DNA of 39,389 nucleotides from an uncultured Thiotrichaceae bacterium. Lineage in GTDB: Bacteria; Pseudomonadota; Gammaproteobacteria; SZUA-229. The first letter of the stretch is position 1; each line of letters starts with the position of its first letter. The DNA lies in assembly GCA_964500555.1 (NCBI GenBank), contig CAZCOZ010000001.1, forward strand, positions 13,708 through 53,096. The letters are read 5' to 3'. A model generated the notes under the pieces. The model ran no database searches and had not been told where the DNA came from. It saw only the letters and a program-made list of their open reading frames with translations. This document shows positions 8,746-39,282 of the stretch, one piece after another. The translations under genes were made by a program, and so were the position numbers.

Positions 8746-8761
8746 AGCAAAGAGCGTGCCT
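8746..8761 (-). promoter_or_regulatory. Sigma-54 -24/-12 promoter upstream of the sigma-54 response regulator gene
   Basis: The minus strand reads aGGCAC-GCTCT-TTGCT with correct GG-N10-GC spacing. It lies about 140 nt upstream of the ATG at 8604. Confidence 0.65.
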
Positions 8762-9626: not shown

Positions 9627-9745
9627 TATAAATATCTAAACCATCCTACCCGCCGCATGACAGTAGCGTATACACTTGCTAATATTGCAATAACTTATAC
9701 CTATTCGCCTTCCAGAGATGGGTTGGATAAATTACCGGATTTACT

Positions 9746-10522
9746 GTGACCAAACAGGCTCATTTACTTTTTCAGAAAAAATATAAGGAAGAACTTATCC
9801 AGGTCTGGCAAAACAACCATCACCGCTGGTTAAGTATCGACAATATCGAACAGTCTCGACTAAACATCAAAAATCCTGAGGAACTTGCATCGCCCCTTGA
9901 TTATTATTTTTTAGCGTGCCTGCTTTTTATTAATATTCCAAAAAATGTGCTCCTTGGCGGTTTAGGTGGCGGCACACTTGCACACTACCTGCATAATAAA
10001 CAACCTGAAATAAATGGACATGCTATCGAAATCAATCCATTGATTGCAAAGTTAGCAAAAGATTATTTCTACTTCCCTCAAAATAAATGGGATATAGACA
10101 TCAGTGATATTGAGCACATCAATATTAAAAGCATTAAACATCACTATGATTTAATGTTGATTGATATTGGTGATAAGGATTCAACACCCGAATGGCTCAC
10201 TAGCGAAAAGATGTTGTTAGAATTTAAACAACAATTATCTGAACATGGCGTATTGGTGATAAATTTGTTAGTAAACAACGCCGATTCCTTTAGTCAAAAA
10301 TTAACAGCAATACGAAAGATATTTAATCGTAAAACAATTTGCGCAAGTATTCCCAGGCATAATAATATTGTGGTTTATGCCTTTAATAAGCAACCGTTAT
10401 ATAGTTCTTCAGATCAATTACAATCTCGGCTTGAAAAATTGTCACAAAGTTGGGGATTAGATTATTCAGTCTTGCTAGAACAGATTCAGCAGGAGAACCC
10501 TAAGGGAAGTGGGGTATTTTAA
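9746..10522 (+). CDS. Spermidine-synthase-fold / class I SAM-dependent methyltransferase-like protein (GTG start)
   Basis: 258 aa. Glycine-rich motif I VLLGGLGGGTLAHYL is followed by an acidic post-I residue (AIEINP) and DLMLIDIGD, the pattern of spermidine synthase-like proteins. GTG is the first start codon after an in-frame TAA at 9728. Confidence 0.65.
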   Translation: MTKQAHLLFQKKYKEELIQVWQNNHHRWLSIDNIEQSRLNIKNPEELASPLDYYFLACLLFINIPKNVLLGGLGGGTLAHYLHNKQPEINGHAIEINPLIAKLAKDYFYFPQNKWDIDISDIEHINIKSIKHHYDLMLIDIGDKDSTPEWLTSEKMLLEFKQQLSEHGVLVINLLVNNADSFSQKLTAIRKIFNRKTICASIPRHNNIVVYAFNKQPLYSSSDQLQSRLEKLSQSWGLDYSVLLEQIQQENPKGSGVF

Positions 10523-10555
10523 CCCGAGCAAGGTCTGGATTACTCAATATAAAAA

Positions 10556-11464: not shown

Positions 11465-11480
11465 AGCAATTTAGATGCCA
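11465..11480 (-). promoter_or_regulatory. Sigma-54 -24/-12 promoter upstream of fliS-fliT
   Basis: The minus strand reads TGGCAT-CTAAA-TTGCT. It begins 1 nt after the flaG stop codon and lies about 92 nt upstream of the fliS ATG. Confidence 0.65.
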
Positions 11481-14900: not shown

Positions 14901-14927
14901 TTAACGACCGTACTGCAGAAAACTTTA
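14901..14927 (-). promoter_or_regulatory. Sigma-28 (FliA) promoter of fliC
   Basis: The minus strand reads TAAAGTTT-N11-GTCGTTAA, against the consensus TAAAGTTT-N11-GCCGATAA. The -35 is exact and the -10 matches 6/8. It lies about 65-90 nt upstream of the fliC ATG. Confidence 0.8.
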
Positions 14928-19631: not shown

Positions 19632-20132
19632 CTATTCCTGCCTGCCAGCTACTGTATTCAAATCAAATTGAATAACGGCACTTGAACGATTAATTTGATT
19701 ACGTATTAATTCAAGGTTATTGATTGCATGATTTGTATTAGTCTGCTGCTCAATAATATGTTGTTCAATAACAGGTTGCTCAATGCCCATATCTTTTTCC
19801 AACATCGCGGCAATACCTAAGCCACCACCCGTTTTATTACTGGCAAGATCCAGTGCTATTTGTTTATCAAACATTTCCTGATAAAAACGCGTTTGGTCGG
19901 ATTCAGCGGAATCACCTGCTATCGTGGCATCTCGCATGGATTTGAGCATCATTTGCAAAAACAGGGATTCAAACTGCTTTGCAACTTCCTTATTTGCTGC
20001 ACGTGATTCCGCTATCGATTCAGCTGTATTTTCATGATTAGAAACTTTACTACGAAGTTTTTGTAGCCCACTAAAATCGGTGTAAAGGCTGGCATCTGAA
20101 ATCTGGCTGATACTATTATTTACGCTATTCAT
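19632..20132 (-). CDS. flgJ: FlgJ, rod-binding domain only (no muramidase domain)
   Basis: 166 aa. It has the rod-binding motif AKQFESLFLQMMLKSMRDA...FYQEMFDKQIALDLA. The ORF ends 5 nt before the flgK start, so there is no space for a C-terminal glucosaminidase domain. Confidence 0.85.
   Translation of the reverse strand: MNSVNNSISQISDASLYTDFSGLQKLRSKVSNHENTAESIAESRAANKEVAKQFESLFLQMMLKSMRDATIAGDSAESDQTRFYQEMFDKQIALDLASNKTGGGLGIAAMLEKDMGIEQPVIEQHIIEQQTNTNHAINNLELIRNQINRSSAVIQFDLNTVAGRQE
19672..19698 (-). promoter_or_regulatory. Weak candidate sigma-28 promoter for flgK-flgL inside the 3' end of flgJ
   Basis: The minus strand reads TCAAATTA-N11-GCCGTTAT (5/8 and 6/8 to consensus). Internal class-3 flgK promoters are known in enterics, but this match is modest. 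Confidence 0.3.
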
Positions 20133-26653: not shown

Positions 26654-26690
26654 ATTGCACTCCAACTTTAATTATTCTTGCGAACTAAAA

Positions 26691-26706
26691 TGCAATCGGT
26701 GTGCCA
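26691..26706 (-). promoter_or_regulatory. Sigma-54 -24/-12 promoter of the flgB operon
   Basis: The minus strand reads TGGCAC-ACCGA-TTGCA, a perfect match to TGGCAC-N5-TTGCA. It lies about 38 nt upstream of the flgB ATG. Confidence 0.85.
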
Positions 26707-27168
26707 ACTTTTAAAAATTAATAATTTGTAATTGATAATTCCCCAAAACACCTACTCTGTCGGTGTTTACATTGAATAAAACATTACTAAAAATATTACA
26801 TAAGAATAAGGAGTCTTTACATTGTCAAAAAAAGAATAGGATCAGCGGCAAGATATGTCCTGTGGGTGGCAAATATTTGTCATTAAAAATGGATGCCGGT
26901 GCTCGCAAAACAAACATGCAACATAGCTTACTTTTAAGATAGTAATCAATTACTTAATTTATACGGTAAAGCACAAAACTGTAATGATTTAAATGATGAC
27001 GACGAATGATAGTGGCGACAAGATTGTCACTCTAAAACACTTAAGAAATATTTATTTTTATTCGCTATAAAAAATTATAGCTAACGTAGCTAACTGAAGT
27101 AGTTAACTAAGAAAAAATAATAAGAAATGAATATATGTCATATGAAATTACACATACATCGAGCCCAG

Positions 27169-27669
27169 TTAGACTTGTACTAGAGATCGTTTGTCCGATG
27201 ATTTAATCGTTTGTCCGGTATGATTATACAATTCGGACATAGATGACGAGCCAGGTAGAATACCATGCAATATATCCAGTGCATGACGTGATTGTTTTGA
27301 AACTGATTCTACGATGCTGCCATTAATACGATTTTTTTCACGGCAGGTTTCTGCTATATCAACCAGTTTATTCCATAAATCTGCTAGTTCTTGATCTGAA
27401 CCAAATTGATAGTTTTTGCTTCTACCCTTATCAGCAACTGCTACAGTTTTAAATGCTGCGAGTAGTTTTTCACGATGTATAGAAAATGATTCCAGCTGCT
27501 GAATTTTTTCCTGTTTTTCTCGAACGACATCTTCCAGTGTAGCGGCATGCTGTTCAGTTAAAGCTTCATATTCTAAATCCAATGATTGCAATAGCTTTTG
27601 AGCACATTCAATTTCATTTTGAAATGCTTGCCTGATCGCGTCCCGATTACTGTTATCGAAAGTATCCAC
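27169..27669 (-). CDS. flgN: Flagellar chaperone FlgN (for FlgK/FlgL); GTG start
   Basis: 166-aa helical protein following flgM. The N-terminal pattern (..ECAQKLLQSLDLEYEALTEQHAATLEDVVREKQEKIQQLE) is FlgN-like. RBS GAGGA lies 7 nt before the GTG. Confidence 0.8.
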   Translation of the reverse strand: MDTFDNSNRDAIRQAFQNEIECAQKLLQSLDLEYEALTEQHAATLEDVVREKQEKIQQLESFSIHREKLLAAFKTVAVADKGRSKNYQFGSDQELADLWNKLVDIAETCREKNRINGSIVESVSKQSRHALDILHGILPGSSSMSELYNHTGQTIKSSDKRSLVQV

Positions 27670-27776: not shown

Positions 27777-28094
27777 TTACTTATCTGATGTCAATACGGT
27801 CTCGAATTTCATTAACTTATCAGCAATTTTATCTGTATCAATTTTAAACGAACCGTCACTAATCGCCTGTTTAACTTGCTCAACGCGTTTTGCATCAACA
27901 ACAGGTGCGGTAATAGCGGTGTTATCAACCTTACCAAGCTGTACCGCATTATCAGAAAGACTAACCGTATCAGCTGTCGATGATTTACCTGATTCAACAT
28001 GCTTCTGTTGTTGTTCAAGAGCGGGTTTAAGTTGACTATCATCCTTCGGCGCATGCACCTTAGGTGTCGATATCCCATTGATATCTATAGACAT
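27777..28094 (-). CDS. flgM: Anti-sigma-28 factor FlgM
   Basis: 105 aa. A disordered N-terminus is followed by C-terminal VDAKRVEQVKQAISDGSFKIDTDKIADKLM, typical of FlgM. RBS is AGGAG. Confidence 0.88.
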   Translation of the reverse strand: MSIDINGISTPKVHAPKDDSQLKPALEQQQKHVESGKSSTADTVSLSDNAVQLGKVDNTAITAPVVDAKRVEQVKQAISDGSFKIDTDKIADKLMKFETVLTSDK

Positions 28095-28159: not shown

Positions 28160-28186
28160 TTAACGGCAGTAAGACCAAAATCTTTA
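28160..28186 (-). promoter_or_regulatory. Sigma-28 (FliA) promoter of flgM-flgN
   Basis: The minus strand reads TAAAGATT-N11-GCCGTTAA (7/8 in each box), in the flgA-flgM spacer. This is the classical position of the class-3 flgMN promoter. Confidence 0.8.
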
Positions 28187-28200
28187 ATTTCATTAAACAA

Positions 28201-28920
28201 TTAAATATCAACTTCTACTTCAGCAGATGACGTTATTACACCCTCTACCTTTTGCCGCGATTTCATATTCATCACATTTATACGATCGCCAATCGCACCA
28301 TTATTCAGCGCTTTCCCCATCATTCTTACCTGCATTCGTCCTGAGTGCGCCAGTATCGACACCTTTTGACCACGTTTTATCACCTGTGGTTTTTTTAACA
28401 TCGCTGGCGTCAATACAGTATCGACTAAAATGTGCCTTTTGACTTTCATTCCGGTGCCTATTTTTATACTTTCAAAATAACCATAAGATAGACGCGATAC
28501 ATCCTGTTTTATTAACTTTAGATCAGACTCCGTTAAAATGTCGCCTCTTTGTAAAGTATGTGTAACAGCAAGTACCTTCTTATACACACTTATCGTGACA
28601 GGAACATGTAATGACCAGGGTTTTGTACCTGTACATTTTACCCCAACCGTCGTTTTACCCATTATACGACTACCTTTAGGCAAAAATGCGCGTAATGCTT
28701 TATTGCATTTTTTTAACTTTAGCCTGGAGTCCAATCTCCCCGTTACTATCTCCGTCGATTGCTTATCTTTCGACGTGACACGATCACGAATAAAACTTTT
28801 AGCCGTCTGATAAATACTGTCATGACTTTGAAAAGATTCAGCAGCAGAAACAGATGACGTTGTACATAAAAGAATGAACAAACTGATATAGTTGAAAAAT
28901 TGATTATTTTTATTCATCAT
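28201..28920 (-). CDS. flgA: Flagellar P-ring assembly chaperone FlgA
   Basis: 239 aa. A signal peptide is followed by a SAF-like region and C-terminal RGQKVSILAHSGRMQVRMMGKALNNGAIGDRINVMNMKSRQKVEGVI. Confidence 0.9.
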   Translation of the reverse strand: MMNKNNQFFNYISLFILLCTTSSVSAAESFQSHDSIYQTAKSFIRDRVTSKDKQSTEIVTGRLDSRLKLKKCNKALRAFLPKGSRIMGKTTVGVKCTGTKPWSLHVPVTISVYKKVLAVTHTLQRGDILTESDLKLIKQDVSRLSYGYFESIKIGTGMKVKRHILVDTVLTPAMLKKPQVIKRGQKVSILAHSGRMQVRMMGKALNNGAIGDRINVMNMKSRQKVEGVITSSAEVEVDI

Positions 28921-28926
28921 TGATAG

Positions 28927-30156
28927 TTAGTTATTTCTTATCCGGCTACCCTTAACACCATATTTAGCCGCTGCATTGTGGACAAATAATTTTGCTTCAT
29001 CCAGATCCGTAAAACCACTAACACTGATTCTATATACCTGCTTCCCTTTAACAACTGCTTTTTCAAGCGAGGGGGATAATCCTGCAATATCCAGTCTTTC
29101 CAGCATTTTATTGGCTTTACTTTCATTACTTAATGAAACCAGATTCACGGTCAAAATAGATTTAATTTTTTTACTTTCCTGAATGTTGCCAGCTATTTTT
29201 TCATCATTTTTACTCTGTATTTTTTCCTCTTTAGCTTTAAGTTCAATGTTTTTAGATGAAAGATTTGAGGAGGTAACATTACCACTCATCTTAGTATTAT
29301 CCAGTTTATTAACATCTATAATGCTGATGTTATTTTCTGTATTAATTTTTTTCTGGTTAATATTGTCTGCTTTAATTTTATCGGCTTTAATCTTATTCTT
29401 CACCAACTCCAACTCTTTTCTCAATGAACGAATATCACTCGTTAACGTACTAACGCTACCTGCAATCAACGTTAATTCATTCGTTGGTAATGGCACAGGA
29501 ATTATATCTATCGGTAGTATCGCCATTGACTGTATTTTTGCCTCCTGTATCTCATTGGGCTTCTTTAAAAACCTGTCACCCATTTTGGTTTTATGTTCAC
29601 GATCTATTACAGTGTAATTAGTATTAACATTCTGTACTGTTTGCTGAATAGAACTTTTTACATATGAATCTAACTTGTACATAGCCAGTCCCACTACCAC
29701 TATAGAAACAATAAATAAGAGTAACAGCTGTGTTCGCGTTATAGAATTAAATAATTCGCCAATAGAAGATGCACCTGATGAAAGCTGAAAAGTATCTTCT
29801 GACATATCGACACCCTTATGATTACCTTCAATTTGGTTCACACCCGATTCGTTACTGTTACTATTATTGCTACTGTTAGTATTTCTTTTATTGATCTGTC
29901 TTTTATTAATGGTTTTATCATAAGCAGGAGCGTTATCCTGTATGCTAGACAACACACTGCTTAAGTTATAATTTCCCGACGAATCATTTTTACCAGGGTT
30001 CTCTCTATTTTGGATGCCTCTATTTTTTAAAGAGCCCCCCTTTGCTTTTTTTATTGCTCTGTCATCTGCAGTTGTATTTAACAAATTAGTCGAATAATCA
30101 GATAGCATTGAATCTGTATCAACTGGACCACTACAAGCGGCTACTAGCGATGACAT
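28927..30156 (-). CDS. Bitopic SPOR-domain (septal/denuded peptidoglycan-binding) protein with an N/S-rich N-terminus and a coiled-coil linker
   Basis: 409 aa. N/S/K-rich low-complexity N-terminal region, one TM helix (LLLLFIVSIVVVGLAMY), a coiled-coil stretch (RSLRKELELVKNKIKADKIKADNI), and a C-terminal SPOR-like domain (LTVNLVSLSNESKANKMLERLDIAGLSPSLEKAVVKGKQVYRISVSGFTDLDEAKLF). This is a DamX/FtsN-like architecture. The start overlaps the upstream stop (TAATG), and the stop is 6 nt before the flgA ATG. Confidence 0.8.
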   Translation of the reverse strand: MSSLVAACSGPVDTDSMLSDYSTNLLNTTADDRAIKKAKGGSLKNRGIQNRENPGKNDSSGNYNLSSVLSSIQDNAPAYDKTINKRQINKRNTNSSNNSNSNESGVNQIEGNHKGVDMSEDTFQLSSGASSIGELFNSITRTQLLLLFIVSIVVVGLAMYKLDSYVKSSIQQTVQNVNTNYTVIDREHKTKMGDRFLKKPNEIQEAKIQSMAILPIDIIPVPLPTNELTLIAGSVSTLTSDIRSLRKELELVKNKIKADKIKADNINQKKINTENNISIIDVNKLDNTKMSGNVTSSNLSSKNIELKAKEEKIQSKNDEKIAGNIQESKKIKSILTVNLVSLSNESKANKMLERLDIAGLSPSLEKAVVKGKQVYRISVSGFTDLDEAKLFVHNAAAKYGVKGSRIRNN

Positions 30157-31094
30157 TAGTGCTTACCTACCTGTAACGGCTTAACTTCAGAATGATTATC
30201 AACACCATTTTTTCCAAGTGCTTTTTCGAGAAGTAATGATTTTTTTGCTCGAAGCATTAACTTACTCGCTGTATCCTCATAGGTAACTGTAGTCGCGCTC
30301 ACACTTATAGTGAATTCAATACTATTGTCTAAATAAATACATTTATCCATAAGAATAAAATCTTTTATTCTTTCAGCTGCTTCCTTCGCCTCACTATTTT
30401 CAGTACTAGGTAAAAACACAAGAAACTCATCAGCATTATTACGATAAACAATATCACTACTGCGCGCTTTTCTTTCTAACCTTCTTGAAACTTCAATAAG
30501 AAGTGCATCACCTGCAGCCCGACCATACTGACTATTAATCAGATCAAAGTCATCAATGTCAAATAACAAAATTGAAAACGGTGTTTTATAACGCTGCGCT
30601 CTTCTTACTTCTAATTCGGCTATATCCTGATAGTTATACCCACTTCTTAACCCTGTCAATTCATCACGCTGCGAAAACTGTATGGATTTTTTATAGCGTA
30701 AAGCATTACGTAACGGTAGAGTCAAACCGGCTAGTAGCACCTCAATAATTTCAATTTCATAATCCAGAAAAACACTGTCTCTCGATATTGATATCGTGCC
30801 TAATATTTCTTCTTCATATCTAAGAGTATAAATACAACTCGGATGACCTATTGTTCCATTGAGGAGATAAGTTTTTGTTGCCTCATCATTATATTCAATG
30901 CCATTACACAGAACCTTTTCTCTAAACACGTCATTAAAGTTATCCAATAACTGATAAACATCCAGTGTTTCATGTAGGTGATTAACAAACGTATCTGTTA
31001 CAGGTTCATCAACAGAATTTGCCATCATATTTTCAATCGTATAGTCCGTATAGTTTTTTTCGCTAACGTGTGTGTTGTTATTCGTTTCAGACAT
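30156..31094 (-). CDS. Degenerate GGDEF-domain protein (A-site NADEF, I-site RSSD retained) with an uncharacterised N-terminal sensor domain
   Basis: GGDEF-fold signature RDELTGL..FSILLFDIDDFDLINSQYGRAAGDALL...RSSDIVYRNNADEFLVFL. GG(D/E)EF is replaced by NADEF, and RxxD sits exactly 5 residues upstream. I prefer the ATG at 31094 (GAGGG RBS 8 nt upstream) over the ORF-track ATG at 31142, which has no RBS. Confidence 0.85.
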   Translation of the reverse strand: MSETNNNTHVSEKNYTDYTIENMMANSVDEPVTDTFVNHLHETLDVYQLLDNFNDVFREKVLCNGIEYNDEATKTYLLNGTIGHPSCIYTLRYEEEILGTISISRDSVFLDYEIEIIEVLLAGLTLPLRNALRYKKSIQFSQRDELTGLRSGYNYQDIAELEVRRAQRYKTPFSILLFDIDDFDLINSQYGRAAGDALLIEVSRRLERKARSSDIVYRNNADEFLVFLPSTENSEAKEAAERIKDFILMDKCIYLDNSIEFTISVSATTVTYEDTASKLMLRAKKSLLLEKALGKNGVDNHSEVKPLQVGKH

Positions 31095-31318
31095 ATTATT
31101 AGCCCTCGTATTAATCGTTGTAATGTATAAAGCAACTACCATGCCAAAAAATAATATTTAACTATAACAATAGCTTGAAATCTAATTCTTTAACTGTGAC
31201 AAAAATTTGTCGATACAAAAATACACAACATCGGATAACTGCTAGAAAAATGGCAGTATTTTGACACTCGGTAGAATGCAATATTTTTAACTATTTCGTC
31301 ATAGTTAAAAAATAACAT

Positions 31319-31551: not shown

Positions 31552-34500
31552 ATGTCTAACAATGAGCTAAAGAAAGAAGGGATAAAGAAAGAAGAGCTGG
31601 AGAAAAAAGAACGGGAGCTCGCTCGCCTGAAAGAAGTTATCGACTCGATAAAACAGAGTATTGATGAGACTGATAATACCAGTGACTCTCATCACCCCCT
31701 TTCTAACAATGCAAAATTTGACGAAAACAATATAAAAAATGCCCGGATACTATTAGCAGAAGACAATAGTATTAATCAGGATGTCATACATGAACAAATG
31801 GAGATGCTGGGCTACGAAATTGAGATCGTCGATAATGGTGTACAGGTCTTATCCATAATCAAACAGAAAAGTTATGACCTTATTCTCATGGATGCGCATA
31901 TGCCGCATATGGATGGTTTTGCTACCGCCCGAGCTATCCGTTCATTTGAGAGAAAAAATAAACGTGATGCTATTATAATCATTGCATTAACCGCAGATAT
32001 TTCACCAGGCATACAGGAACACTGCACAAGTGTCGGCATGAATGACTATCTAGCTAAACCCTTTTTTATTGATGATCTCGATAATATGCTAAAAAAATGG
32101 TTAAGTAATGCACCTATAGAAAAGTCACATACTATTGAAGTTCAGAAACCACTTTCATTAGACTCTACAGACATTTTAAATATGTCTGTTATCGAACAAT
32201 TACGAATATTAAGCCAGAAAGGTGGACGAAATACGCTAGGCAACGCCATCAGTCGCTACCGTAGTTCAGCTTTAGAACAATTAGATTCAATGCACCACGC
32301 TGCAATGAAAAAAAATTGTAAAGAATTAGCTTCAATCAGTCATAGTCTAAAATCATCCAGTGGAACGCTAGGCGTTAATCTCATTTACACAGCAGCAGCA
32401 GAAATTGAAGAATTGGCTAATACGAATAACATTGGGCATATACAACAAGCTATAACCCAACTTGAAGAAAAACTGATAATTTCCGTACAGGCACTAGAAG
32501 ATTTAGCGGAAAATTCAAAAATAATAGCACCTATAGTAACCTCACCTATGCCTGTTATAGGAAACGATCAACAGTTACTCGTTGTTGATGATAATAAGGT
32601 AACACTCGACACGCTACAAAACGCATTACAACAATTCGGTTACAGAGTTGACAGTGCCAATAACGGTGAAGAAGCATTAGCACTACTTTCAAAGAATAAT
32701 TATGATTTAGTTATTACCGATTTACAGATGCCCGTCATGGATGGTTATGATTTATGCAAAGCAATACGAAGAAAATATACTGCAGAAACATTACCTATCT
32801 TAGTATTGACCAGCACTGCAAACGATGTACACGTACATGATGCTTATGAAATAGGTATTAGTAACTTTATTGTTAAGCCGTTCAATTTTCTAAATCTTGC
32901 CTATACCATTCTATTTACAATACAGAATACACGAAATGCTCACGATTTATGGCGTAATCAACAACTTTTAGGAGTAGCAGAAAATGTAGCTCAGGTAAGC
33001 AACTGGTCATGGGAAATAGATACGCAGAAAATACAGTTTTCGAGCCATTTGCAATGTTATTTTGATCCGCTATTAGATGATATAAACACTCTCGATGAAT
33101 TTATTTCCACGATGAACCTTGATGGGATGCGTTCGGCGATTAAATCATGCCTTTCAAATAAAAAAGAAACGAGTTGGGAGCAAGAGATTATCCACTCAAA
33201 ATATGAAAAATCTCTATATATTCTGCATCGATTTTGCATCATTCATAACGAAAATAATAACTCTGTACTCATCGGAACAGTGCAAAATATATCCTCAATA
33301 CGGCAAGCAGAGCAACGCATCACCGAACTGGCATTTTATGACACACTAACAAAACTCAACAGCCGATCAAGTTTTAATAAAAAACTACAGGAATTAATAA
33401 TCAGCTCCAAACGTAAGACAAAAAAATTTGCCTTACTCTATCTAGATCTTGATAACTTTAAAAACATTAATGATAGCTTTGGACATGATGTCGGCGATCT
33501 ATTATTGAAAGAAGTCGCCAATCGTCTACGTACACTTTTAAGGAAAGATGATTTTGCAAGTCGCCTCGGTGGTGATGAATTTTGCCTACTGCTTCACGAT
33601 ATTACAGATAACCTTTCTGCTGCCAATGTCGCACAACGCTGTCTAGAAATACTGTCTCAACCTATCACGCTTGCTGAAAGAGAATTTTCACCACACGCCA
33701 GTATTGGTATAGCTATCTATCCACAAAATGGAGGTGATGCAACCTTTTTAATAAAAGCTGCTGACACAGCGATGTATGAAGCAAAAAATAATGGTAAAGA
33801 TCAATATGCTTTTTATGAATCTGCAATGACTGACGCAGCTCACCTTCGATTAGTCATCGAAAATGATTTACGTACAGCACTAAGTGACGAACAATTTGAA
33901 CTGTATTACCAACCGAAAATATCACTATCATCAGGTAACGTAACAAGCGTTGAAGCACTTATTCGCTGGAATCATCCGGAAAAAGGTTTATGTCCACCAG
34001 ACAGTTTTATACCTGAAGCTGAACGCATGGGATTAATTGCTGAGCTTGGTGAATGGGTCGTGAAGACGGCATGCAAACAAATAAAATTGTGGCGAAGCCA
34101 GGGACTTAAAGATTTACCCGTTGCAGTCAATATTTCACCAACACATTTCGAACAGGATGGTTTTGCCGAAGATATGGCAAATCTTGTTAATGATTTAGAT
34201 ATATCCCCGTCATTAATTGAAATAGAGATTACTGAAAGTACATCGCGCGACCAACGCGTATTCACCAACACCTGTAAACAACTTCGTGTACTCGGATTTA
34301 GAACCGCTATTGATGATTTTGGAACAGGTTACTCATCACTATCCGTTCTTAAAGACGCTGCAGTTGATGTACTAAAAATTGATAGAGAGTTCGTTCGACA
34401 CATTCCTAACGATTCACAATCTTCAATACTTATTGGTACGATACTCGGTATGAGTAAAGCATTGGGCCTGGAAGTCGTCGCTGAGGGTATTGAAACGGAA

Positions 34501-34644
34501 GAGCAGTTAACCGTTCTCGTCGCGATGGGCTGTCATATGGCTCAAGGTTATTATTTTAGTAAACCTGTTCCTGCTGAAAAAATTCCCGCATTAGCACAAT
34601 GTTGCTTCCGTCGTCCTAAAGCCAATCAAGTTGCATATAAATAA
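31552..34644 (+). CDS. Multidomain signalling protein: coiled coil - REC - Hpt - REC - PAS - GGDEF - EAL
   Basis: 1030 aa. REC1 has ILLAEDN..DLILMDAHMPHMDG..LTAD..YLAKP. Hpt has SISHSLKSSSGTLGV (HxxKG-type phospho-His). REC2 has LLVVDDN..DLVITDLQMPVMDG..LTS..FIVKP. A PAS-like region follows. GGDEF has an intact RLGGDEF and the I-site RKDD 5 residues upstream. EAL has an intact catalytic set (ELYYQP, VEALIRW, NISP, EIEITES, DDFGTGYSSL, KIDREF, EGIETEEQ, QGYYFSKP). Confidence 0.93.
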   Translation: MSNNELKKEGIKKEELEKKERELARLKEVIDSIKQSIDETDNTSDSHHPLSNNAKFDENNIKNARILLAEDNSINQDVIHEQMEMLGYEIEIVDNGVQVLSIIKQKSYDLILMDAHMPHMDGFATARAIRSFERKNKRDAIIIIALTADISPGIQEHCTSVGMNDYLAKPFFIDDLDNMLKKWLSNAPIEKSHTIEVQKPLSLDSTDILNMSVIEQLRILSQKGGRNTLGNAISRYRSSALEQLDSMHHAAMKKNCKELASISHSLKSSSGTLGVNLIYTAAAEIEELANTNNIGHIQQAITQLEEKLIISVQALEDLAENSKIIAPIVTSPMPVIGNDQQLLVVDDNKVTLDTLQNALQQFGYRVDSANNGEEALALLSKNNYDLVITDLQMPVMDGYDLCKAIRRKYTAETLPILVLTSTANDVHVHDAYEIGISNFIVKPFNFLNLAYTILFTIQNTRNAHDLWRNQQLLGVAENVAQVSNWSWEIDTQKIQFSSHLQCYFDPLLDDINTLDEFISTMNLDGMRSAIKSCLSNKKETSWEQEIIHSKYEKSLYILHRFCIIHNENNNSVLIGTVQNISSIRQAEQRITELAFYDTLTKLNSRSSFNKKLQELIISSKRKTKKFALLYLDLDNFKNINDSFGHDVGDLLLKEVANRLRTLLRKDDFASRLGGDEFCLLLHDITDNLSAANVAQRCLEILSQPITLAEREFSPHASIGIAIYPQNGGDATFLIKAADTAMYEAKNNGKDQYAFYESAMTDAAHLRLVIENDLRTALSDEQFELYYQPKISLSSGNVTSVEALIRWNHPEKGLCPPDSFIPEAERMGLIAELGEWVVKTACKQIKLWRSQGLKDLPVAVNISPTHFEQDGFAEDMANLVNDLDISPSLIEIEITESTSRDQRVFTNTCKQLRVLGFRTAIDDFGTGYSSLSVLKDAAVDVLKIDREFVRHIPNDSQSSILIGTILGMSKALGLEVVAEGIETEEQLTVLVAMGCHMAQGYYFSKPVPAEKIPALAQCCFRRPKANQVAYK

Positions 34645-34671
34645 TACAATCAGATATAGTCTAAATAGATC

Positions 34672-35514
34672 ATGAATAATCTTTCGTTACAACAAGAAAT
34701 AGAACAGGAAAGTAACTTACCTGTATTACCACCTGGTATATCAAATTTATTCAAAACACTGGCTGATGAAAATATCACCTACGAAGTCGTCGCAGAAGAA
34801 ATCGAAAGATTTCCAACAATTGCGATAAGAGTTGTCGCAACGGCAAACTCATCATGGGCGGCGCCGATCGCACCGATTACATCATTGCGCGATTCCTGTT
34901 CACGATTAGGCTCGCAACTGGTTCTTAGTATTTCCATCGCGTTATCTGTTTCACAGGCATTTAACCCTTCTCGTTGCCCAGCATTTGAGTCAAAAAAATT
35001 TTGGGTAAGTGCGCTATTAACTGCAGAAGCTGCATTTAATAGCGCAAAAGAAACATCGGATATTTGCCCCGATACAGCACGATTAGCTGGGTTACTCCAT
35101 AATATTGGTTTATTATGGCTCGCAGAAAATAGGCCCTTAGAAATATCGGACGCTATATCTATAAGTCAAAATGATAATGTTTCATTTACACAAACACTAT
35201 TAGAAAAATATGAGCTCGATTTATATGATGTCGGCGGTTACCTGGCGACATCATTAGAATTACCAGAAACAATCGGAACAACTATTGCCAGCTATTCAAG
35301 CAAAAATCTATCTTCGGAAAATATTGATAGCGCAGAACCTTTAATTGTTAATCATCATTACGCGCACCAATTAGCTTCTTCTGTATTATTGCATGCTGAT
35401 GCAAATGGAGAAGATATCGAAACGCCCTATTCTCACGACGACCCACATTTTCAGCAACTCATGGAAAAATTATCGCGTATTCAATCTATGGCTCAGGCTT
35501 TGTTTTTTAGTTAG
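34672..35514 (+). CDS. HDOD-domain protein
   Basis: 280 aa. LPVLPPGISNLFKTLADENITYEVVAEEIERFPTIAIRVVATANSS .. and AGLLHNIGLLWL match the HDOD (HD-related output domain) pattern. It starts 27 nt after the upstream gene and is probably co-transcribed. Confidence 0.85.
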   Translation: MNNLSLQQEIEQESNLPVLPPGISNLFKTLADENITYEVVAEEIERFPTIAIRVVATANSSWAAPIAPITSLRDSCSRLGSQLVLSISIALSVSQAFNPSRCPAFESKKFWVSALLTAEAAFNSAKETSDICPDTARLAGLLHNIGLLWLAENRPLEISDAISISQNDNVSFTQTLLEKYELDLYDVGGYLATSLELPETIGTTIASYSSKNLSSENIDSAEPLIVNHHYAHQLASSVLLHADANGEDIETPYSHDDPHFQQLMEKLSRIQSMAQALFFS

Positions 35515-35609: not shown

Positions 35610-36134
35610 TTAGCTTTTACGACGACGCTGCATAGCTACAAGACCAAGCAAACCTGAAACAAACAACCACGCACTCGCTGGAAGCGGTACAACCGTTGTG
35701 CCTGTATAAAACCGGCCTTTAGAACCGCCACTTACAAATTGTATATCGTCAGCAAAACGAATAAAATCAACACCAGCTTCAGCAATAATGTCACCCGGAT
35801 TGTCAAAAATAGTGAAATCCAGCGATGTAAGAGTACCGGTAGCAGCATTAGTATCAAAACTCAGCACAGGAGCAGCACCGTCACTAATGCCAAAAGTCTC
35901 ACCAAATAGTTCAAACTTCGTGGCACCATGCCATGTACTCACTGTTCCGCTAACTGCGTCATAATCATCTGAATCAAACGCCAAAATAGCTTTACCTATC
36001 TCGCCATCAAACGCGCCACCGTCAATGGTAGTGTTTATTGTGTGGATGACCAAAGCAGCCTGGCTCACTGTACTTGCAAGCAAGAGTGCTGAAGCAAGGA
36101 TAACTGTTTCTATCGATTTTTTTATTTTCATCAT
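35610..36134 (-). CDS. Secreted protein with a C-terminal VPLPA-CTERM (PEP-CTERM-class, exosortase-type) sorting signal
   Basis: Signal peptide MMKIKKSIETVILASALLLASTVSQA. The C-terminus VVPLPASAWLFVSGLLGLVAMQRRRKS gives the motif, a TM helix and a basic tail. The ATG at 36134 is preceded by AAGGAA at 8 nt. The ORF-track start is 36167. Confidence 0.75.
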   Translation of the reverse strand: MMKIKKSIETVILASALLLASTVSQAALVIHTINTTIDGGAFDGEIGKAILAFDSDDYDAVSGTVSTWHGATKFELFGETFGISDGAAPVLSFDTNAATGTLTSLDFTIFDNPGDIIAEAGVDFIRFADDIQFVSGGSKGRFYTGTTVVPLPASAWLFVSGLLGLVAMQRRRKS

Positions 36135-36446
36135 TTTGCTATTCCTTATCGTGTGAATTTTAAACATTTATATTGATTTTAGTTCCAACAATGCACTATC
36201 TATACCAAGTTTATATCTATCTGTATTTATTAGCTTTTTTTAAACCGACTTTCAAACCCATTAAGCAAGTGTAAAACATTCCAACTTTTAACCCTGCCCA
36301 CAATCAAATTTCAGGTAGAGTTGATAAATAATACATAAAATCAGGTAACAACAGCATTAAGTTATTGATTTTTTAAATAATAGAAAAAAATTAATTCACC
36401 TAAACGTAAACTTTTACGACACCTGGCACTATTCCAGTAAAAAGCG

Positions 36447-37835
36447 CTACGTTTCAGGCTCAAGCCAATTATTTATCTCGACCAAATCTTTTTCAGTCAG
36501 GATACCTGCGGCACGCTTAAGTTCTAAGCTATTTGTGATGTATTGATAGCGTGCAGCGAAGTAATCTCGTTTACTGCTGTATAACAAACGTCGTGCTAAC
36601 AGAACATCAACGCTTGTTCGTGTACCCGCATCATAACCCGCACTGGTGGCATCCAGTGATGTTTGTGTTGAAATAACCGCCTGCTCTCGTGCTTTTACTG
36701 TTGAAATATCGGCCGTGAGACTTTGGTAAGCGGAACGCGCTAGTGCTTTGGTTCTACGTTGAGTCAGCTCCTGTATGGCTACCGCCTGATTTAATTCTGA
36801 TGCTCTTTGACGGATAACAGAACTGGTTCGCCCACCACTGTATATTGGTATATCGAGAGAAAGCCTGACCGTTCCAGATTCACTCACATTTGAAGGAATG
36901 GTTGTACCCGTTACGAGAGAGTTACGCTCATCCGTATTCGTTACACCAAAAGAAGCATTTAAATTTAGCGTAGGGTAATGACCACCTTTGCTACCGTTAT
37001 AAGCACTACGCGCGGCATCAACTGCATATTGTGATGAACGTAATTCAAAATTATTCTCCAGTGCACTTTTCTGCCACGCATTTATATCCGTTGGTTCGGG
37101 TACAACAAGCGGAATTTTTTCACGAACAACTTCGACATTTGTGCTGTATACATTAATAATTATGCCAAGTACTTCACGCGCATTTGCCAGCTGATTCTCT
37201 GCAATAATTTTATCTGCCTGTGCAATATCGTAACTAGCCTGTTGCTCTTTCACATCGGTGATATTAGAAAGCCCTACGTTGTAACGTTCTTTACTTTGTT
37301 CGAGTTGCTCACCAATCGCTTTTATTTCTGCCTCAACGGTTTCCAGTGCATCTTTTTCTGTTAACACAGCAAAATAAGCCTGTGCAACCCGAATAATCAT
37401 ATCCTGTTTTGCTACTTCAAAATCAATCAATGCCTGTGCTGCAATGGCATCACCCTGTTCAATATTTTCAAAAATGGTTTTATTAAAAATAACCTGATTT
37501 AAATTCAGCGAATAACCATCACTGTCATCGTCAAACTTCGTCACAACACCAGCACGATCATTTTCTGTCTTACCGCGCTGGACAAATCCATTTATGGCAA
37601 TTTGTGGCAGTACTGCAGCAAAGTTTTGTGAATACGTTTCAGAAACAGCCATATAATTTGCATAAGCCGCAAGAAAAGTCGCATCATAGCTTTTAGCTCG
37701 TTGCACAGCCTCAACAAGGTCTAATGCATACGTATTACTGCTAGCAAATAACAAACTCAGTGTCGTCGTTACTAATATTTTAGATATTTTTTTTCTTACA
37801 AAATGATTTATATCTGGATCGAACATTTGCTTCAT
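36447..37835 (-). CDS. TolC-family outer membrane channel (type I secretion OMP)
   Basis: 462 aa. A signal peptide is followed by two internally repeated TolC-like halves (..LDLVEAVQRAKSYDATFLAAYANY.. / ..ENNFELRSSQYAVDAARSAYNGSKGGHYPTLNLNASFG..). Lies directly downstream of hlyD. Confidence 0.9.
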   Translation of the reverse strand: MKQMFDPDINHFVRKKISKILVTTTLSLLFASSNTYALDLVEAVQRAKSYDATFLAAYANYMAVSETYSQNFAAVLPQIAINGFVQRGKTENDRAGVVTKFDDDSDGYSLNLNQVIFNKTIFENIEQGDAIAAQALIDFEVAKQDMIIRVAQAYFAVLTEKDALETVEAEIKAIGEQLEQSKERYNVGLSNITDVKEQQASYDIAQADKIIAENQLANAREVLGIIINVYSTNVEVVREKIPLVVPEPTDINAWQKSALENNFELRSSQYAVDAARSAYNGSKGGHYPTLNLNASFGVTNTDERNSLVTGTTIPSNVSESGTVRLSLDIPIYSGGRTSSVIRQRASELNQAVAIQELTQRRTKALARSAYQSLTADISTVKAREQAVISTQTSLDATSAGYDAGTRTSVDVLLARRLLYSSKRDYFAARYQYITNSLELKRAAGILTEKDLVEINNWLEPET

Positions 37836-37917
37836 CTTTGTATATGCTCCATATTTTTATTCAGCTCACATCGGTGACTACAATTGTTTATTGCTACCGT
37901 CTTTAATCCTCAATACT

Positions 37918-39282
37918 TTAATCTTCAATAAATGAACGGGCCACTGTATTAAGTATAGGATCGGTAAGGTACTGCAAGAAAGTTCGCTCGCCTGTAAATA
38001 TAAAAGTATCGGCTGGCATACCTGCAATTAAAGAAAGTTTATTGACTTCAAGTTGCGCTAAGCCTTCTTCTGTTATTTCAATAATCGCTAAATAATATGG
38101 CGGTATATCTCGATTTTTTTCGCTGCTAATACTGTCTGCTGAAATATTAATTATTCTACCTTCAATTTTTTTCGTTTCACGTGATTTAAATGCTGAAAAA
38201 TTAATATCTGCTATCTGTCCTACCGTAACACGATCAATATCAAGTAGAGAAATCTGAGCTTCAACAATCAGTCGTTCACTTTGCGGTACAATTTCCATCA
38301 ACTTAGCACCCTGTTGTATTACCGCACCAACTGTGTGAATAGCCAATTCATAAACTGTACCTGTTTGTGGTGAGCGAATAACAGTACGAGAAAGCGTATC
38401 TCCTACTATCTGCAACTGTTCAACTAATTGATACAAACGTTCTTGCACGGTATCCAGTTCACCAGCAACTTCTCTTTGAAGCTCTTTTTGCAACTGCAAA
38501 GACTGTAATTTTGCCGACACGACCTCAGATCGCGTTGCTGCAATGCGTGCAACTAAATCACCTAATGTTCCCTGATTACCCGATACTTCTCGTTGTAGAA
38601 GCCTGACTTGCTGACGTTCAGCAAAACCTTTCTTTTCTAATTTTTTAAGATCTTTATGCTCTGTTTCAAAGGATGCCAATAAACGTTGGCTCGCTTTTTT
38701 CTGTGACACCAGTCCTTTAAGTTGAGAATTAAGCTGTTGCTCCTGTTGCTTGTACAGCTTGATTTCGTTTTCATAGGATTCATTTCGCGCAAAAAAGGTT
38801 TGTTTTTGTACATCAATGACATCGACAACACGGTAATCCTCTTTATGCTCAAGCAATTGTGGCGGAAAAGTAATTTCTTCTTTTAAATCACGCTGTGCTT
38901 TTAACCGCGCTTCACGCGCTAATGCAGAGAAATACTGCCCCTGTACAATTTCCAGTTGAGATTTAGATTGTGTGTCGTCAAGTACCATAACAACCTGACC
39001 TTTTTCAACACGGTCGCCATCACGCACACGTAACGATTTAACAATACCGCCTTCAAGATGCTGTATTGTTTTACGGTTACTTTCGACGCGAAGTTTCCCT
39101 GGAGCATACGCCGCACTCGCAATAGGGGCCAACGCTGCCCAACTGCCAAAACCAAAAAAGACAACGATGATAATAAGGTAACCTGCACGTCGAAAATTGC
39201 GATCCTCGTTTAAGTTCAGTATGTCTTCTGAAGAGCTTTTATTCGACTGTCGCCTGGATGACTTTTTCTTCGTTGTCGTCAT
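37918..39282 (-). CDS. HlyD-family type I secretion membrane fusion (periplasmic adaptor) protein
   Basis: 454 aa. N-terminal TM (YLIIIVVFFGFGSWAALAPI), GKLRVESNRKTIQHLEGGIVKSLRVRDGDRVEKGQVVMVLDDT, a long coiled coil, and C-terminal ..GMPADTFIFTGERTFLQYLTDPI, typical of the HlyD/PrtE/AprE family. Confidence 0.92.
   Translation of the reverse strand: MTTTKKKSSRRQSNKSSSEDILNLNEDRNFRRAGYLIIIVVFFGFGSWAALAPIASAAYAPGKLRVESNRKTIQHLEGGIVKSLRVRDGDRVEKGQVVMVLDDTQSKSQLEIVQGQYFSALAREARLKAQRDLKEEITFPPQLLEHKEDYRVVDVIDVQKQTFFARNESYENEIKLYKQQEQQLNSQLKGLVSQKKASQRLLASFETEHKDLKKLEKKGFAERQQVRLLQREVSGNQGTLGDLVARIAATRSEVVSAKLQSLQLQKELQREVAGELDTVQERLYQLVEQLQIVGDTLSRTVIRSPQTGTVYELAIHTVGAVIQQGAKLMEIVPQSERLIVEAQISLLDIDRVTVGQIADINFSAFKSRETKKIEGRIINISADSISSEKNRDIPPYYLAIIEITEEGLAQLEVNKLSLIAGMPADTFIFTGERTFLQYLTDPILNTVARSFIED

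Follow-up and report, generated by a model that had tools for sequence, protein, structure and literature searches.

A degenerate GGDEF protein with a conserved I-site is encoded with a SPOR-domain protein ahead of flgA in uncultured Gammaproteobacteria: a candidate c-di-GMP receptor for flagellar assembly

The window, that is the whole stretch of 39,389 nucleotides analysed here (positions 13,708 to 53,096 of contig CAZCOZ010000001.1, assembly GCA_964500555.1, from an uncultured Thiotrichaceae bacterium), contains a series of minus-strand genes that encode, in order, a GGDEF-domain protein, a SPOR-domain protein, FlgA, FlgM and FlgN (Table 1). The GGDEF and SPOR domains had been called in an initial annotation from the sequence, and profile searches bear out both calls, with Pfam scores of 98.5 bits (cut-off 23.8) for the GGDEF domain and 32.2 bits (cut-off 21) for the SPOR domain.

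Table 1. Features of the GGDEF-SPOR-flgA locus and its surroundings, listed in the direction of transcription of the minus-strand genes; positions are those of the window.
Feature	Position	Strand	Description or basis
HDOD protein gene, divergent neighbour	34672..35514	+	Pfam
REC-Hpt-REC-GGDEF-EAL protein gene, divergent neighbour	31552..34644	+	Pfam
Sigma-54 (-24/-12) promoter	31131..31146	-	TGGCATGGTAGTTGCT; near-consensus; 37 nt 5' of GGDEF start codon
GGDEF-protein gene, putative c-di-GMP receptor	30156..31094	-	312 aa, soluble; N-domain/stalk/GGDEF
N-terminal alpha/beta sensor-like domain, residues 34-110	30765..30995	-	AF2: two helices, four-stranded sheet
Long stalk helix, residues 111-141	30672..30764	-	invariant motif LAGLxLPLRNA
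GGDEF domain, residues 142-296	30207..30671	-	Pfam PF00990, E 4.3e-28
Primary I-site RSSD, R211/D214 (residues 211-214)	30453..30464	-	equivalent to PleD R359/D362
Degenerate A-site NADEF, residues 220-224	30423..30437	-	codons AAT GCT GAT GAG TTT
Secondary I-site arginine R242	30369..30371	-	PleD R390 equivalent; phmmer alignment to 1w25
TAATG stop/start overlap, GGDEF/SPOR genes	30154..30158	-	plus strand CATTA; codons share one base
SPOR-protein gene	28927..30156	-	409-aa bitopic (N-in) membrane protein, C-terminal SPOR
Cytoplasmic motif 1, SMLSD(F/Y)SxxLLN, residues 16-27	30076..30111	-	alignment
Cytoplasmic motif 2, NxNLSSVLSxIQDxGPAY, residues 62-79	29920..29973	-	alignment
Single transmembrane helix, about residues 144-160	29677..29727	-	hydrophobic LLLLFIVSIVVVGLAMY after K/R-rich tail
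Periplasmic long helix/coiled coil, residues 225-275	29332..29484	-	motif VSxLxxEIxxLRKEL conserved
SPOR domain, residues 335-409	28930..29154	-	Pfam PF05036, E 1.4e-7
flgA (P-ring assembly chaperone), operon gene 3	28201..28920	-	Pfam ChapFlgA 1.3e-32, ChapFlgA_N 3.2e-16
Sigma-28 promoter ahead of flgM	28160..28186	-	TAAAGATT-N11-GCCGTTAA; pattern search
flgM	27777..28094	-	Pfam FlgM 3.1e-16
flgN	27169..27669	-	Pfam FlgN 1.1e-22

A sigma-54 promoter, which the initial annotation had missed, stands ahead of the GGDEF gene. The window has four exact matches to TGGCAY-N5-TTGCW where 0.19 would be expected; all four are on the minus strand ahead of flagellar operons, and the three others fall within the flagellar cluster, one directly 5' of flgB. 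The motif lies between -52 and -62 from the GGDEF ATG in all eight loci first examined and is kept at a fixed distance ahead of the gene in every locus with upstream sequence (23 of 23). The position of this promoter relative to the GGDEF start codon marks GGDEF-SPOR-flgA as a flagellar-type operon. The next promoter downstream is the sigma-28 promoter ahead of flgM, whose pattern occurs four times in the window (0.10 expected) and which is also kept in orthologous loci. Both this promoter and the absence of a promoter-sized gap earlier in the operon had been proposed before and are confirmed; since a -24/-12 promoter precedes them and no further promoter gap opens ahead of flgA, the three genes are probably co-transcribed, as judged from their sequence. 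A generic scan for sigma-70 promoters and terminators returned 23 sites where 22 were expected, which is no signal above chance.

The start codon of the GGDEF gene is placed at 31094 because the ATG at 31142, which opens a longer reading frame used in several 328-aa database entries, is situated within the conserved sigma-54 promoter, and because a GAGGG Shine-Dalgarno sequence occurs 8 nt upstream of 31094; the longer frame was thus rejected. At the other end of the gene the overlap with the SPOR gene, reported in the initial annotation, is read directly on the coding strand. Of 25 orthologous loci, 17 have an overlap of this kind (TAATG or ATGA), and at the remaining readable junctions the gap is at most 17 nt, with the exception of L001, in which the SPOR gene likely carries a frameshift. 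These gap statistics leave out L104, where duplicated segments with N bases represent an assembly artefact. The SPOR gene stops at 28927..28929 and the flgA ATG is at 28920, giving the 6-nt gap that had been described.

The AF2 model of the GGDEF protein (pLDDT 77.7) contains a GGDEF domain that Foldseek matches to isolated GGDEF structures (e.g. 3ign) with TM scores up to 0.91. Within this domain the motifs run in the order ARSSD-IVYRN-NADEF, such that the RxxD motif is found exactly five residues ahead of the GG(D/E)EF position, and a phmmer alignment to PleD sets RSSD on RAID (R359/D362) and NADEF on GGEEF; translation and alignment thus agree with the motif reading first made. The GG(D/E)EF signature of active cyclases is absent from the window protein, both glycines being replaced in NADEF. 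The window protein does possess D179, N187, D196 and K291, the equivalents of PleD D327, N335, D344 and K442, and because these metal- and guanine-binding residues are present, its A-site may still bind nucleotide.

The sensor-like domain at the N-terminus is less easily classified. Profile searches gave no significant match for it in Pfam (19 members searched) or in the PDB, and the hoped-for identification by profile search therefore did not yield a confident GAF or PAS assignment. A faint Pfam GAF match (E 0.13) appears in two of the 19 members, and full-length Foldseek matches, which are dominated by the GGDEF domain, include the GAF-GGDEF protein Dcsbis/PA2771 (4zmu) and a phytochrome-DGC; 'GAF-like' is used here as a tentative label. 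The best near-full-length match among NCBIfam models was Shewanella DgcS, but the score of 91 bits falls short of the cut-off (400), and the window protein is not a member of that family.

The distribution of substitutions across the GGDEF family is revealing of how its two sites have evolved. The family comprises about 82 members of about 312 aa, its edge being defined by a sharp drop in score from 203 to 92 bits. RxxD is present in all 79 full-length members and the R390-equivalent arginine is R in 78 of the 79; the I-site triad (R211/D214/R242) is therefore essentially invariant and is stricter than any position of the A-site motif. That motif reads GGDEF in only 23 of 83 members, its substitutions arose repeatedly in separate subclades, and half of the family has replaced the metal-binding Glu of the fourth motif position (by K, Q, N, A, R or D). 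In the subclade whose GGDEF motif is intact, both the D327 and the D344 equivalents are N, and a fully canonical catalytic site, with GGDEF and both of these aspartates, is found in 14 of 79. As a control, the wider superfamily sharing the N-terminal domain has a fully canonical site in 76 of 100 representatives; this domain occupies the corresponding position in proteins of roughly 300 aa from about 200 representative clusters, and the family is judged from these comparisons to descend from an active-looking cyclase superfamily. Members of that superfamily and other sensor-stalk-GGDEF cyclases, Dcsbis/PA2771 for one, match the window protein in architecture and in their length of about 300 aa, but they are mostly canonical GG(D/E)EF enzymes, and the examples checked (L003 and L004) are not near flagellar genes. 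Three matches at 32-36% identity (L002-L004) were rejected as orthologues for their non-flagellar contexts, two of them (L003 and L004) being beside rluB-scpB-scpA; a GTDB genome scan with the full-length alignment gave, among the matches listed, one true family member (L001).

These patterns strengthen the earlier suggestion that the window protein is a putative c-di-GMP receptor, given an I-site triad conserved family-wide and a catalytic site that appears to have drifted repeatedly. They qualify the accompanying statement that it is probably catalytically dead, which suits the loss of both glycines in the window protein but does not extend to the family, 14 members of which are canonical. 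SGDEF and AGDEF variants are active in other proteins. An unlikely alternative is that the family consists of regulated, product-inhibited diguanylate cyclases, tethered by the SPOR protein at the septum or pole and feeding a local c-di-GMP pool. Such an enzyme would be made with the basal body, comparable to the polar cyclases PleD or DgcP-FimV, and the window NADEF protein would be either weakly active or a dead copy, specific to this lineage, whose only role is to regulate partners. The largely canonical parent superfamily, the canonical members of the family itself and the near invariance of the GTP-binding residues N187, D196 and K291 agree with this, and RxxD is the standard feedback site of active cyclases too. 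However, the GGDEF gene has a dN/dS of 0.11 relative to a 93%-identical orthologue and the SPOR gene one of 0.25, which indicates purifying selection on both genes and a GGDEF gene that is not decaying. Because this strong selection acts on a protein lacking both glycines, because the position-4 Glu is gone in half of the family and because N replaces the D327 and D344 equivalents in the subclade with an intact motif, catalysis cannot be the conserved function of the family as a whole.

The retention of GTP-contacting residues, D222 among them, even in degenerate members is compatible, judging from the alignment, with an A-site that goes on binding nucleotide or whose catalysis is residual or altered. 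It could also be read to mean that the degenerate A-site binds GTP, as do the GGDEF domains of PdeA/CC3396 or FimX, and that the protein reports nucleotide or energy state or scaffolds the SPOR protein, with RxxD serving a structural or partner-binding role instead of binding c-di-GMP. The preservation of guanine and phosphate contacts at N187, D196, K291 and D222 alongside the loss of catalytic positions is what such a protein would display, but an I-site triad that is stricter than the A-site, including the distal R242, is hard to explain without c-di-GMP, and this account is considered very improbable.

The SPOR partner is a membrane protein whose AF2 model places the start of the transmembrane helix at residue 141. 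A sequence search of the PDB gave nothing significant for it, and the fold of its C-terminal domain was therefore confirmed by AF2 and Foldseek. The model (pLDDT about 90) has the b-a-b-b-a-b RNP-like fold; its best PDB match is the SPOR domain of RlpA bound to denuded glycan (TM 0.79, rmsd 2.0 A), and the SPOR domains of DamX, DedD and CwlC are matched as well. The protein evolves rapidly, and its conservation outside the SPOR domain is highest in the two cytoplasmic motifs and in the helix motif of the periplasmic part. S19, D20, S22, L25 and L26 of motif 1 are invariant in alignment A2, and N62, N64, L65, V68, L69, S70, I72, D74 and A78 of motif 2 are invariant as well. The initial description of this protein as DamX/FtsN-like is apt for its N-in bitopic topology and C-terminal SPOR domain, which it has in common with DamX, DedD and FtsN, but not for the rest: no NCBIfam equivalog, those of DamX, FtsN and DedD included, gave a match at E <= 0.01, similarity to these proteins outside the SPOR domain was not found, and SPOR is the sole recognisable domain. 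Furthermore, the family-specific cytoplasmic motifs and a flagellar sigma-54 operon, in place of a division context, set it apart from DamX, DedD, FtsN and RlpA.

To our knowledge, the SPOR proteins characterised to date are division proteins. On one alternative account the pair is a passenger: a SPOR protein of the DamX/DedD kind and its regulator would serve cell division or the envelope and happen to be encoded ahead of flgA, without any part in the flagellum. The division role of the characterised SPOR proteins, the JGI name 'DedD' on one homologue and the fast evolution of the SPOR partner lend themselves to such a reading. The conservation of the locus makes it highly doubtful, however. 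Promoter, gene order and tight coupling are kept in about 25 metagenomic or MAG loci; in all 25 loci for which there is sequence the SPOR gene is directly 3' of the GGDEF gene, with flgA next in line in 17 of 17, such that the synteny with flg genes anticipated for relatives is indeed found. The linkage of GGDEF, SPOR, flgA, flgM and flgN holds from 93% to 40% identity even as the upstream neighbours change, and the flagellar-type sigma-54 promoter at all 23 loci, the lack of a promoter-sized gap before flgA and the failure of all three NCBIfam division models to match the partner argue in the same direction.

The reading favoured here, with confidence a little above even, is that the GGDEF protein acts as a receptor for c-di-GMP and docks on a membrane protein anchored to peptidoglycan, and that the two form an accessory for flagellar assembly or placement. 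The sequence analysis establishes the domain identities, the promoter, the operon structure, the conservation and the pattern of selection; the binding of c-di-GMP, the physical complex of the two proteins and the flagellar output are the inferred parts of this model. The genomic context agrees with it: FlgJ of the window has kept the rod-binding domain but not the hydrolase domain, and genes of c-di-GMP turnover adjoin the locus in several lineages. According to it, a sigma-54-driven flagellar operon would produce first a soluble c-di-GMP receptor, derived from an active diguanylate cyclase family, which in this lineage lost the catalytic motif (NADEF) and kept R211, D214 and R242. The receptor would probably dock on the two conserved motifs in the 142-aa cytoplasmic tail of the SPOR partner, and the periplasmic coiled coil and SPOR domain would tether the complex to denuded peptidoglycan, either in septum-derived, new-pole wall or in wall remodelled around the nascent rod. 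At the I-site, c-di-GMP, typically as an intercalated dimer that cross-links GGDEF domains, could then change the oligomeric or active state of the wall-anchored complex. An early envelope step of flagellum building may in this way depend on the level of the second messenger, with the complex produced alongside the P-ring chaperone FlgA; site choice, wall penetration and P-ring formation are candidates for the controlled step. The initial proposal of a checkpoint for insertion of the basal body through the wall is accordingly a plausible guess, and an output in polar placement is equally plausible. The carriers are uncultured Gammaproteobacteria that presumably bear a polar flagellum, and because they are uncultured, functional work will need synthetic genes and surrogate hosts. 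Cluster look-up and a FliI search pointed to MAGs labelled 'Gammaproteobacteria bacterium', and among named organisms Thiolapillus brandeum is the closest, with about 70% identity in FliI.

Several known systems resemble parts of this arrangement. PelD of Pseudomonas aeruginosa and PopA of Caulobacter crescentus have a degenerate A-site, keep RxxD and use the GGDEF domain as a c-di-GMP receptor. PelD pairs a GAF-type domain with GGDEF, is itself membrane-anchored and is encoded in an exopolysaccharide operon, and PopA is a REC-REC-GGDEF protein that feeds CtrA proteolysis. Unlike the window protein, neither is a flagellar-operon gene or coupled to a SPOR protein, and the N-terminal domain of the window protein belongs to a distinct family. 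FlgZ/YcgR-type effectors of Pseudomonas are encoded beside flgMN and link a c-di-GMP receptor to the flagellum; they use a PilZ domain and act on the motor or stator after assembly, and their gene is downstream of flgN without a peptidoglycan-binding partner, whereas the window pair is upstream of flgA. No description of a GGDEF-SPOR-flgA module was found in the literature searched, consistent with the initial view that the pairing is not a described flagellar module.

Flagella are controlled by c-di-GMP through transcription (FleQ/FlrA), through the motor (YcgR/FlgZ/MotI) and, in Caulobacter, through placement (TipF). If the favoured model is true, a receptor translationally coupled to a peptidoglycan-binding protein and co-transcribed with FlgA would add a control point at the level of the envelope, and SPOR domains would gain a role beyond cell division. 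The family would in addition offer a clean natural case of the conversion of cyclases to receptors, with a relaxed A-site, a frozen I-site and an active-looking sister superfamily as control.

A more specific version of this model, rather unlikely in its full form, is that the pair is a flagellar landmark or wall-passage checkpoint, in which the SPOR protein reads denuded glycan and the I-site receptor, bound to the cytoplasmic tail of that protein, allows c-di-GMP to block or permit the process. The denuded glycan would be a remnant of division or the product of a local amidase, and the SPOR protein would set the site at which the basal body crosses the wall in bacteria whose FlgJ has no hydrolase; FlgJ in the window consists of the rod-binding domain only. 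In Caulobacter crescentus, a membrane landmark derived from the division site (TipN) and an inactive c-di-GMP-binding protein (TipF) license the new-pole flagellum (Davis et al. 2013, PMC3792480). If the window pair marks the pole, it would follow this logic as a functional analogy without homology, TipF being a degenerate EAL protein and TipN a coiled-coil membrane protein without SPOR, and their genes are located outside any flgA operon. If the landmark version were correct, the pair would do the work of TipN-TipF with unrelated proteins, and a SPOR protein would for the first time have a role in the flagellum.

The genomic surroundings hold further genes of c-di-GMP signalling. The divergent neighbours of the operon, encoding the REC-Hpt-REC-GGDEF-EAL and HDOD proteins, are possibly a local source or sink of c-di-GMP, as suggested by their genomic context; the same pair occurs at both L085 and L086, whereas L081 and L089 have other c-di-GMP genes close to the module. 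A small ORF 5' of the divergent EAL gene is kept in the closest relative only.

Nearly the whole 39-kb window is occupied by a single flagellar gene cluster on the minus strand, which opens with the GGDEF gene, the SPOR gene, flgA, flgM and flgN, continues with flgB through flgL, a TPR-sulfotransferase gene, fliC, fliD, flaG and fliS, and ends with a sigma-54-dependent response regulator gene followed by fliE through fliJ. The elements described in the initial annotation, namely the GGDEF gene with its RSSD and NADEF motifs, the TAATG overlap, the SPOR gene, flgA-flgM-flgN and the sigma-28 promoter, were all recovered in place, as was the 6-nt gap between the end of the SPOR gene and the flgA ATG. 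FlgA, FlgM and FlgN are confirmed by Pfam.

Table. Features of the window, by position or by residues of the protein named
Feature	Position	Strand	Description
GGDEF gene	30156..31094	-	312 aa
GGDEF protein, small alpha/beta domain	residues 34-104		two helices, four strands (AF2 model)
GGDEF protein, long stalk helix	residues 111-141		invariant LAGLxLPLRNA motif (AF2 model)
GGDEF protein, GGDEF domain			C-terminal to stalk helix (AF2 model)
SPOR gene	28927..30156	-	409 aa
SPOR partner, conserved cytoplasmic motif	residues 16-27		SMLSD(F/Y)SxxLLN
SPOR partner, conserved cytoplasmic motif	residues 62-79		NxNLSSVLSxIQDxGPAY
SPOR partner, single transmembrane helix	residues ~144-160		
SPOR partner, periplasmic long helix			conserved motif VSxLxxEIxxLRKEL
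GGDEF stop/SPOR start overlap	30158..30154	-	TAATG on coding strand
Sigma-54 element	31146..31131	-	TGGCATGGTAGTTGCT, near-consensus -24/-12, 37 nt upstream of 31094 ATG
Exact sigma-54 promoter	812..827	-	
Exact sigma-54 promoter	11465..11480	-	
Exact sigma-54 promoter	26691..26706	-	flgB's own
One-mismatch sigma-54 site	8746..8761		ahead of sigma-54 response regulator gene (7204..8604)
Sigma-28 promoter	28186..28160	-	TAAAGATT-N11-GCCGTTAA, ahead of flgM
Sigma-28 match	14901..14927	-	ahead of fliC
flgJ	19632..20132	-	166 aa
TPR-sulfotransferase gene	15065..16705	-	between flgL and flagellin gene fliC
Two genes interrupting the cluster	9096..10522	+	
flgN-flgB spacer	26666..27168		~500 bp, apparently non-coding
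REC-Hpt-REC-GGDEF-EAL and HDOD genes	31552..35514	+	first product 1030 aa; divergent from GGDEF-SPOR-flgA operon
VPLPA-CTERM/PEP-CTERM protein gene	35610..36167	-	185 aa
TolC/HlyD pair	36447..39282		adjoins PEP-CTERM protein gene

Exact matches to the sigma-54 pattern TGGCAY-N5-TTGCW number four in the window against 0.19 expected (0 of 100 shuffles reach four), and each stands ahead of a flagellar operon (that of flgB among them) on the minus strand; the sigma-28 pattern is matched four times against 0.10 expected. The GGDEF-SPOR-flgA unit carries the signature of a sigma-54 flagellar operon, and the three further sigma-54 promoters and the fliC sigma-28 promoter would outline the transcriptional tiers of the cluster. 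In Pseudomonas flgA itself is FleQ/RpoN-dependent, so that the two extra genes of the window sit between the flagellar promoter and flgA. Several database orthologues of the GGDEF protein (P0001, P0003, P0004 and P0006) are annotated from an upstream ATG, at 328-347 aa. The corresponding ATG at 31142, the start of 328-aa entries, was rejected: it falls inside the conserved sigma-54 promoter, as in the closest relative (L085), the two loci where this was checked, and because a GAGGG Shine-Dalgarno sequence also stands 8 nt upstream of the 31094 ATG, the latter is the real start. The upstream-start entries are probably at least 16 residues too long.

Protein searches delimit a sharply bounded family of ~82 clusters, each of ~312 aa and 40-93% identical, beyond which the next match falls from 203 to 92 bits. 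Its named members are all 'Gammaproteobacteria bacterium' MAGs, and by FliI the lineage likewise falls within uncultured Gammaproteobacteria, with Thiolapillus brandeum (~70% identity) as the nearest organism that has a name. In loci gathered by exact-protein look-up, through one GTDB match and by scanning metagenomes with an N-terminal alignment specific to the family, synteny with flg genes is evident: the SPOR-protein N-terminal motif directly follows the GGDEF gene in all 25 loci that could be read at this point, the SPOR domain is succeeded by flgA in 17 of 17, and flgM and flgN come next wherever the contig extends. Of the 25, 17 have a GGDEF stop codon overlapping the start of the SPOR gene (TAATG or ATGA), other readable gaps being at most 17 nt (except in L001, likely a frameshift), and SPOR-to-flgA gaps range from -1 to 86 nt. 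All 23 loci whose sequence extends upstream keep the sigma-54 element; in the eight measured, it lies at -52 to -62 relative to the ATG. The upstream neighbours vary, being a HisKA kinase, divergent fliK/flhB-like genes or a REC-GGDEF-EAL/HDOD pair, and in these comparisons the conserved entity is the GGDEF-SPOR-flgA unit itself and not the wider region. The alternative of a division module merely adjacent to flgA is weakened because the flagellar promoter is conserved, no promoter gap occurs inside the unit, and the linkage outlasts changes of upstream context.

The GGDEF protein (Pfam GGDEF, E 4.3e-28) reads ...ARSSD-IVYRN-NADEF..., with RSSD at residues 211-214 and NADEF at 220-224. A phmmer alignment to PleD (1w25) bears out the I-site geometry noted initially, placing RSSD on RAID (R359/D362), NADEF on GGEEF and R242 on the secondary I-site arginine R390. 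Neither a transmembrane segment nor a signal peptide is evident in the protein, which is therefore cytoplasmic. In the AF2 model (pLDDT 77.7) the N-terminus is disordered (residues 1-31), and full-length Foldseek matches are sensor-stalk-GGDEF cyclases (phytochrome-DGC 5llw, GAF-GGDEF Dcsbis 4zmu). Because the sensor domain returned no significant Pfam or PDB sequence match, the label 'GAF-like' is tentative.

Within the family alignment R211, D214 and R242 are invariant, and in a wider census all 79 full-length members have RxxD and 78 have R242. The A-site, in contrast, reads GGDEF in only 23 of 83 members; many have A, S, N, E, T or D instead of the first glycine, position 4 is Lys in 24 and Q, N, A, R or D in others, and in neighbour-joining order these substitutions spread over several separate subclades. 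In the subclade that retains GGDEF, the positions equivalent to D327 and D344 are both Asn, and a fully canonical catalytic site occurs in only 14/79 members. As a control, the N-terminal domain alone was searched against 1.84 billion representative proteins. It is common to ~200 clusters, almost always at residues 40-145 of a ~300-aa protein, and among 100 such proteins outside the top matches 76 are fully canonical (mostly GGEEF) and 93 carry RxxD. The contrast between this canonical superfamily and the drifted family indicates that the flagellum-linked subfamily descends from an active-looking cyclase family, its catalytic site specifically relaxed and its I-site frozen. Two distant paralogues of the same N-domain-GGDEF architecture (L003, 3134..4081, and L004, 9938..10792; 32-36% identity) stand in a housekeeping context in Pseudomonadales-like MAGs (SDR gene, GGDEF, then rluB-scpB-scpA) and probably represent the ancestral, catalytically canonical branch.

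The GGDEF gene is not decaying, since its dN/dS against a 93%-identical orthologue (0.11) is comparable to those of flgM and flgN (0.12 each). The guanine- and phosphate-contacting N187, D196 and K291 and the motif Asp D222 are nearly invariant, so that the A-site may still bind nucleotide, or some members may retain residual chemistry. These GTP contacts and the canonical minority support a tethered, product-inhibited cyclase, a reading weakened by how widely essential catalytic residues have been lost under purifying selection. The reading in which the GGDEF domain senses GTP or serves purely as a scaffold is weakened too, the whole I-site triad being more strictly conserved. The early description of the protein as probably catalytically dead suits the NADEF found here, but not the fully canonical members or the conserved GTP contacts.

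The SPOR partner scores above the curated Pfam cut-off (32.2 vs 21 bits), and AF2, run with the family alignment, confidently models residues 335-409 as a b-a-b-b-a-b domain. Among PDB structures this domain most resembles the SPOR domain of RlpA in complex with denuded glycan (TM 0.79, rmsd 2.0 A), then the SPOR domains of DamX, DedD and CwlC. The partner evolves much faster, being 73% identical where GGDEF proteins are 93% identical (dN/dS 0.25). It had been called DamX/FtsN-like; the SPOR domain is upheld, but the NCBIfam DamX, FtsN and DedD models do not match it, and the resemblance to DamX is one of topology only. In L001, the only GTDB representative with the module among the matches listed, the SPOR gene (9264..10528) seems to contain a frameshift that puts its SPOR domain out of frame with its N-terminal part; an error in assembling long reads is the likely cause, and the gene is unlikely to be a pseudogene.

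The partner's 142-aa cytoplasmic tail would be the sole physical bridge between the cytoplasmic receptor and the periplasmic peptidoglycan-binding domain, and its two conserved motifs would be the obvious docking sites for the GGDEF receptor. We consider it somewhat better than an even chance that the two proteins form a complex that is anchored to the wall and responds to c-di-GMP, produced along with FlgA once the sigma-54 tier of flagellar genes is switched on, whose output would be an early envelope step in building the flagellum. FlgJ matches only the rod-binding N-terminal part of TIGR02541 (positions 3-110 of 294), and no muramidase/glucosaminidase domain was detected in it, which is unusual for a gammaproteobacterium; this short FlgJ may be relevant to what the SPOR protein does. 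With FlgJ reduced to rod binding, another factor must organise wall opening, and a role of the complex in wall passage or P-ring formation, with flgA as the gene predicted to be co-transcribed, is a tentative version of the model. Placement is a similarly speculative one: denuded glycans, which are enriched at division septa, are what SPOR domains bind (Yahashiri et al. 2017, cited in PMC13029372), so the SPOR protein could label poles that derive from septa, following a logic like that of TipN-TipF in Caulobacter (PMC3792480). Either version is considerably less likely than the general model.

Full-text literature searches turned up neither a GGDEF-SPOR pair described within a flgA operon nor a SPOR protein with a flagellar role, in keeping with the initial view that the pairing is not a described flagellar module. 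The pieces of the module are all of known kinds, matching I-site receptors such as PelD and PopA, SPOR-anchored bitopic proteins, and the PilZ protein FlgZ, a c-di-GMP effector near flgMN. That the general theme is currently active is shown by a recent preprint on Caulobacter CmrA, which is a degenerate GGDEF/EAL protein of unrelated architecture that is recruited to the flagellar pole. The carriers are uncultured and we infer every functional step; the comparative signal is clean, and synthetic genes make the hypothesis testable.

The neighbourhood of the module offers several further observations. The REC-Hpt-REC-GGDEF-EAL/HDOD pair of the window also occurs in L085 and L086, and in L081 and L089 the module is flanked by other c-di-GMP or partner-switching genes (STAS, REC-SpoIIE, DGCcoil-GGDEF); such c-di-GMP turnover genes, recurrent in several lineages, could govern the local signal. 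In five relatives (L083, L086, L087, L088 and L089) the gene directly preceding the module, ~260-350 bp ahead of GGDEF and on the same strand, encodes a HisKA-HATPase_c histidine kinase of 460-480 aa, which is absent at that position in the window and L085. The flgN-flgB spot holds a CheW-REC (CheV) gene in L083, L086 and L088 and a CHASE8 hybrid kinase in L087. The TPR-repeat protein with a sulfotransferase domain (Sulfotransfer_3, E 3.8e-41) may modify flagellin or glycan. The two plus-strand genes encode a 176-aa ORF without assignment and a polyamine aminopropyltransferase-like protein (NF003380, E 8.7e-43, under the model cut-off). Finally, the VPLPA-CTERM/PEP-CTERM sorting signal (TIGR03370, E 5.8e-9) implies an exosortase system in the organism.
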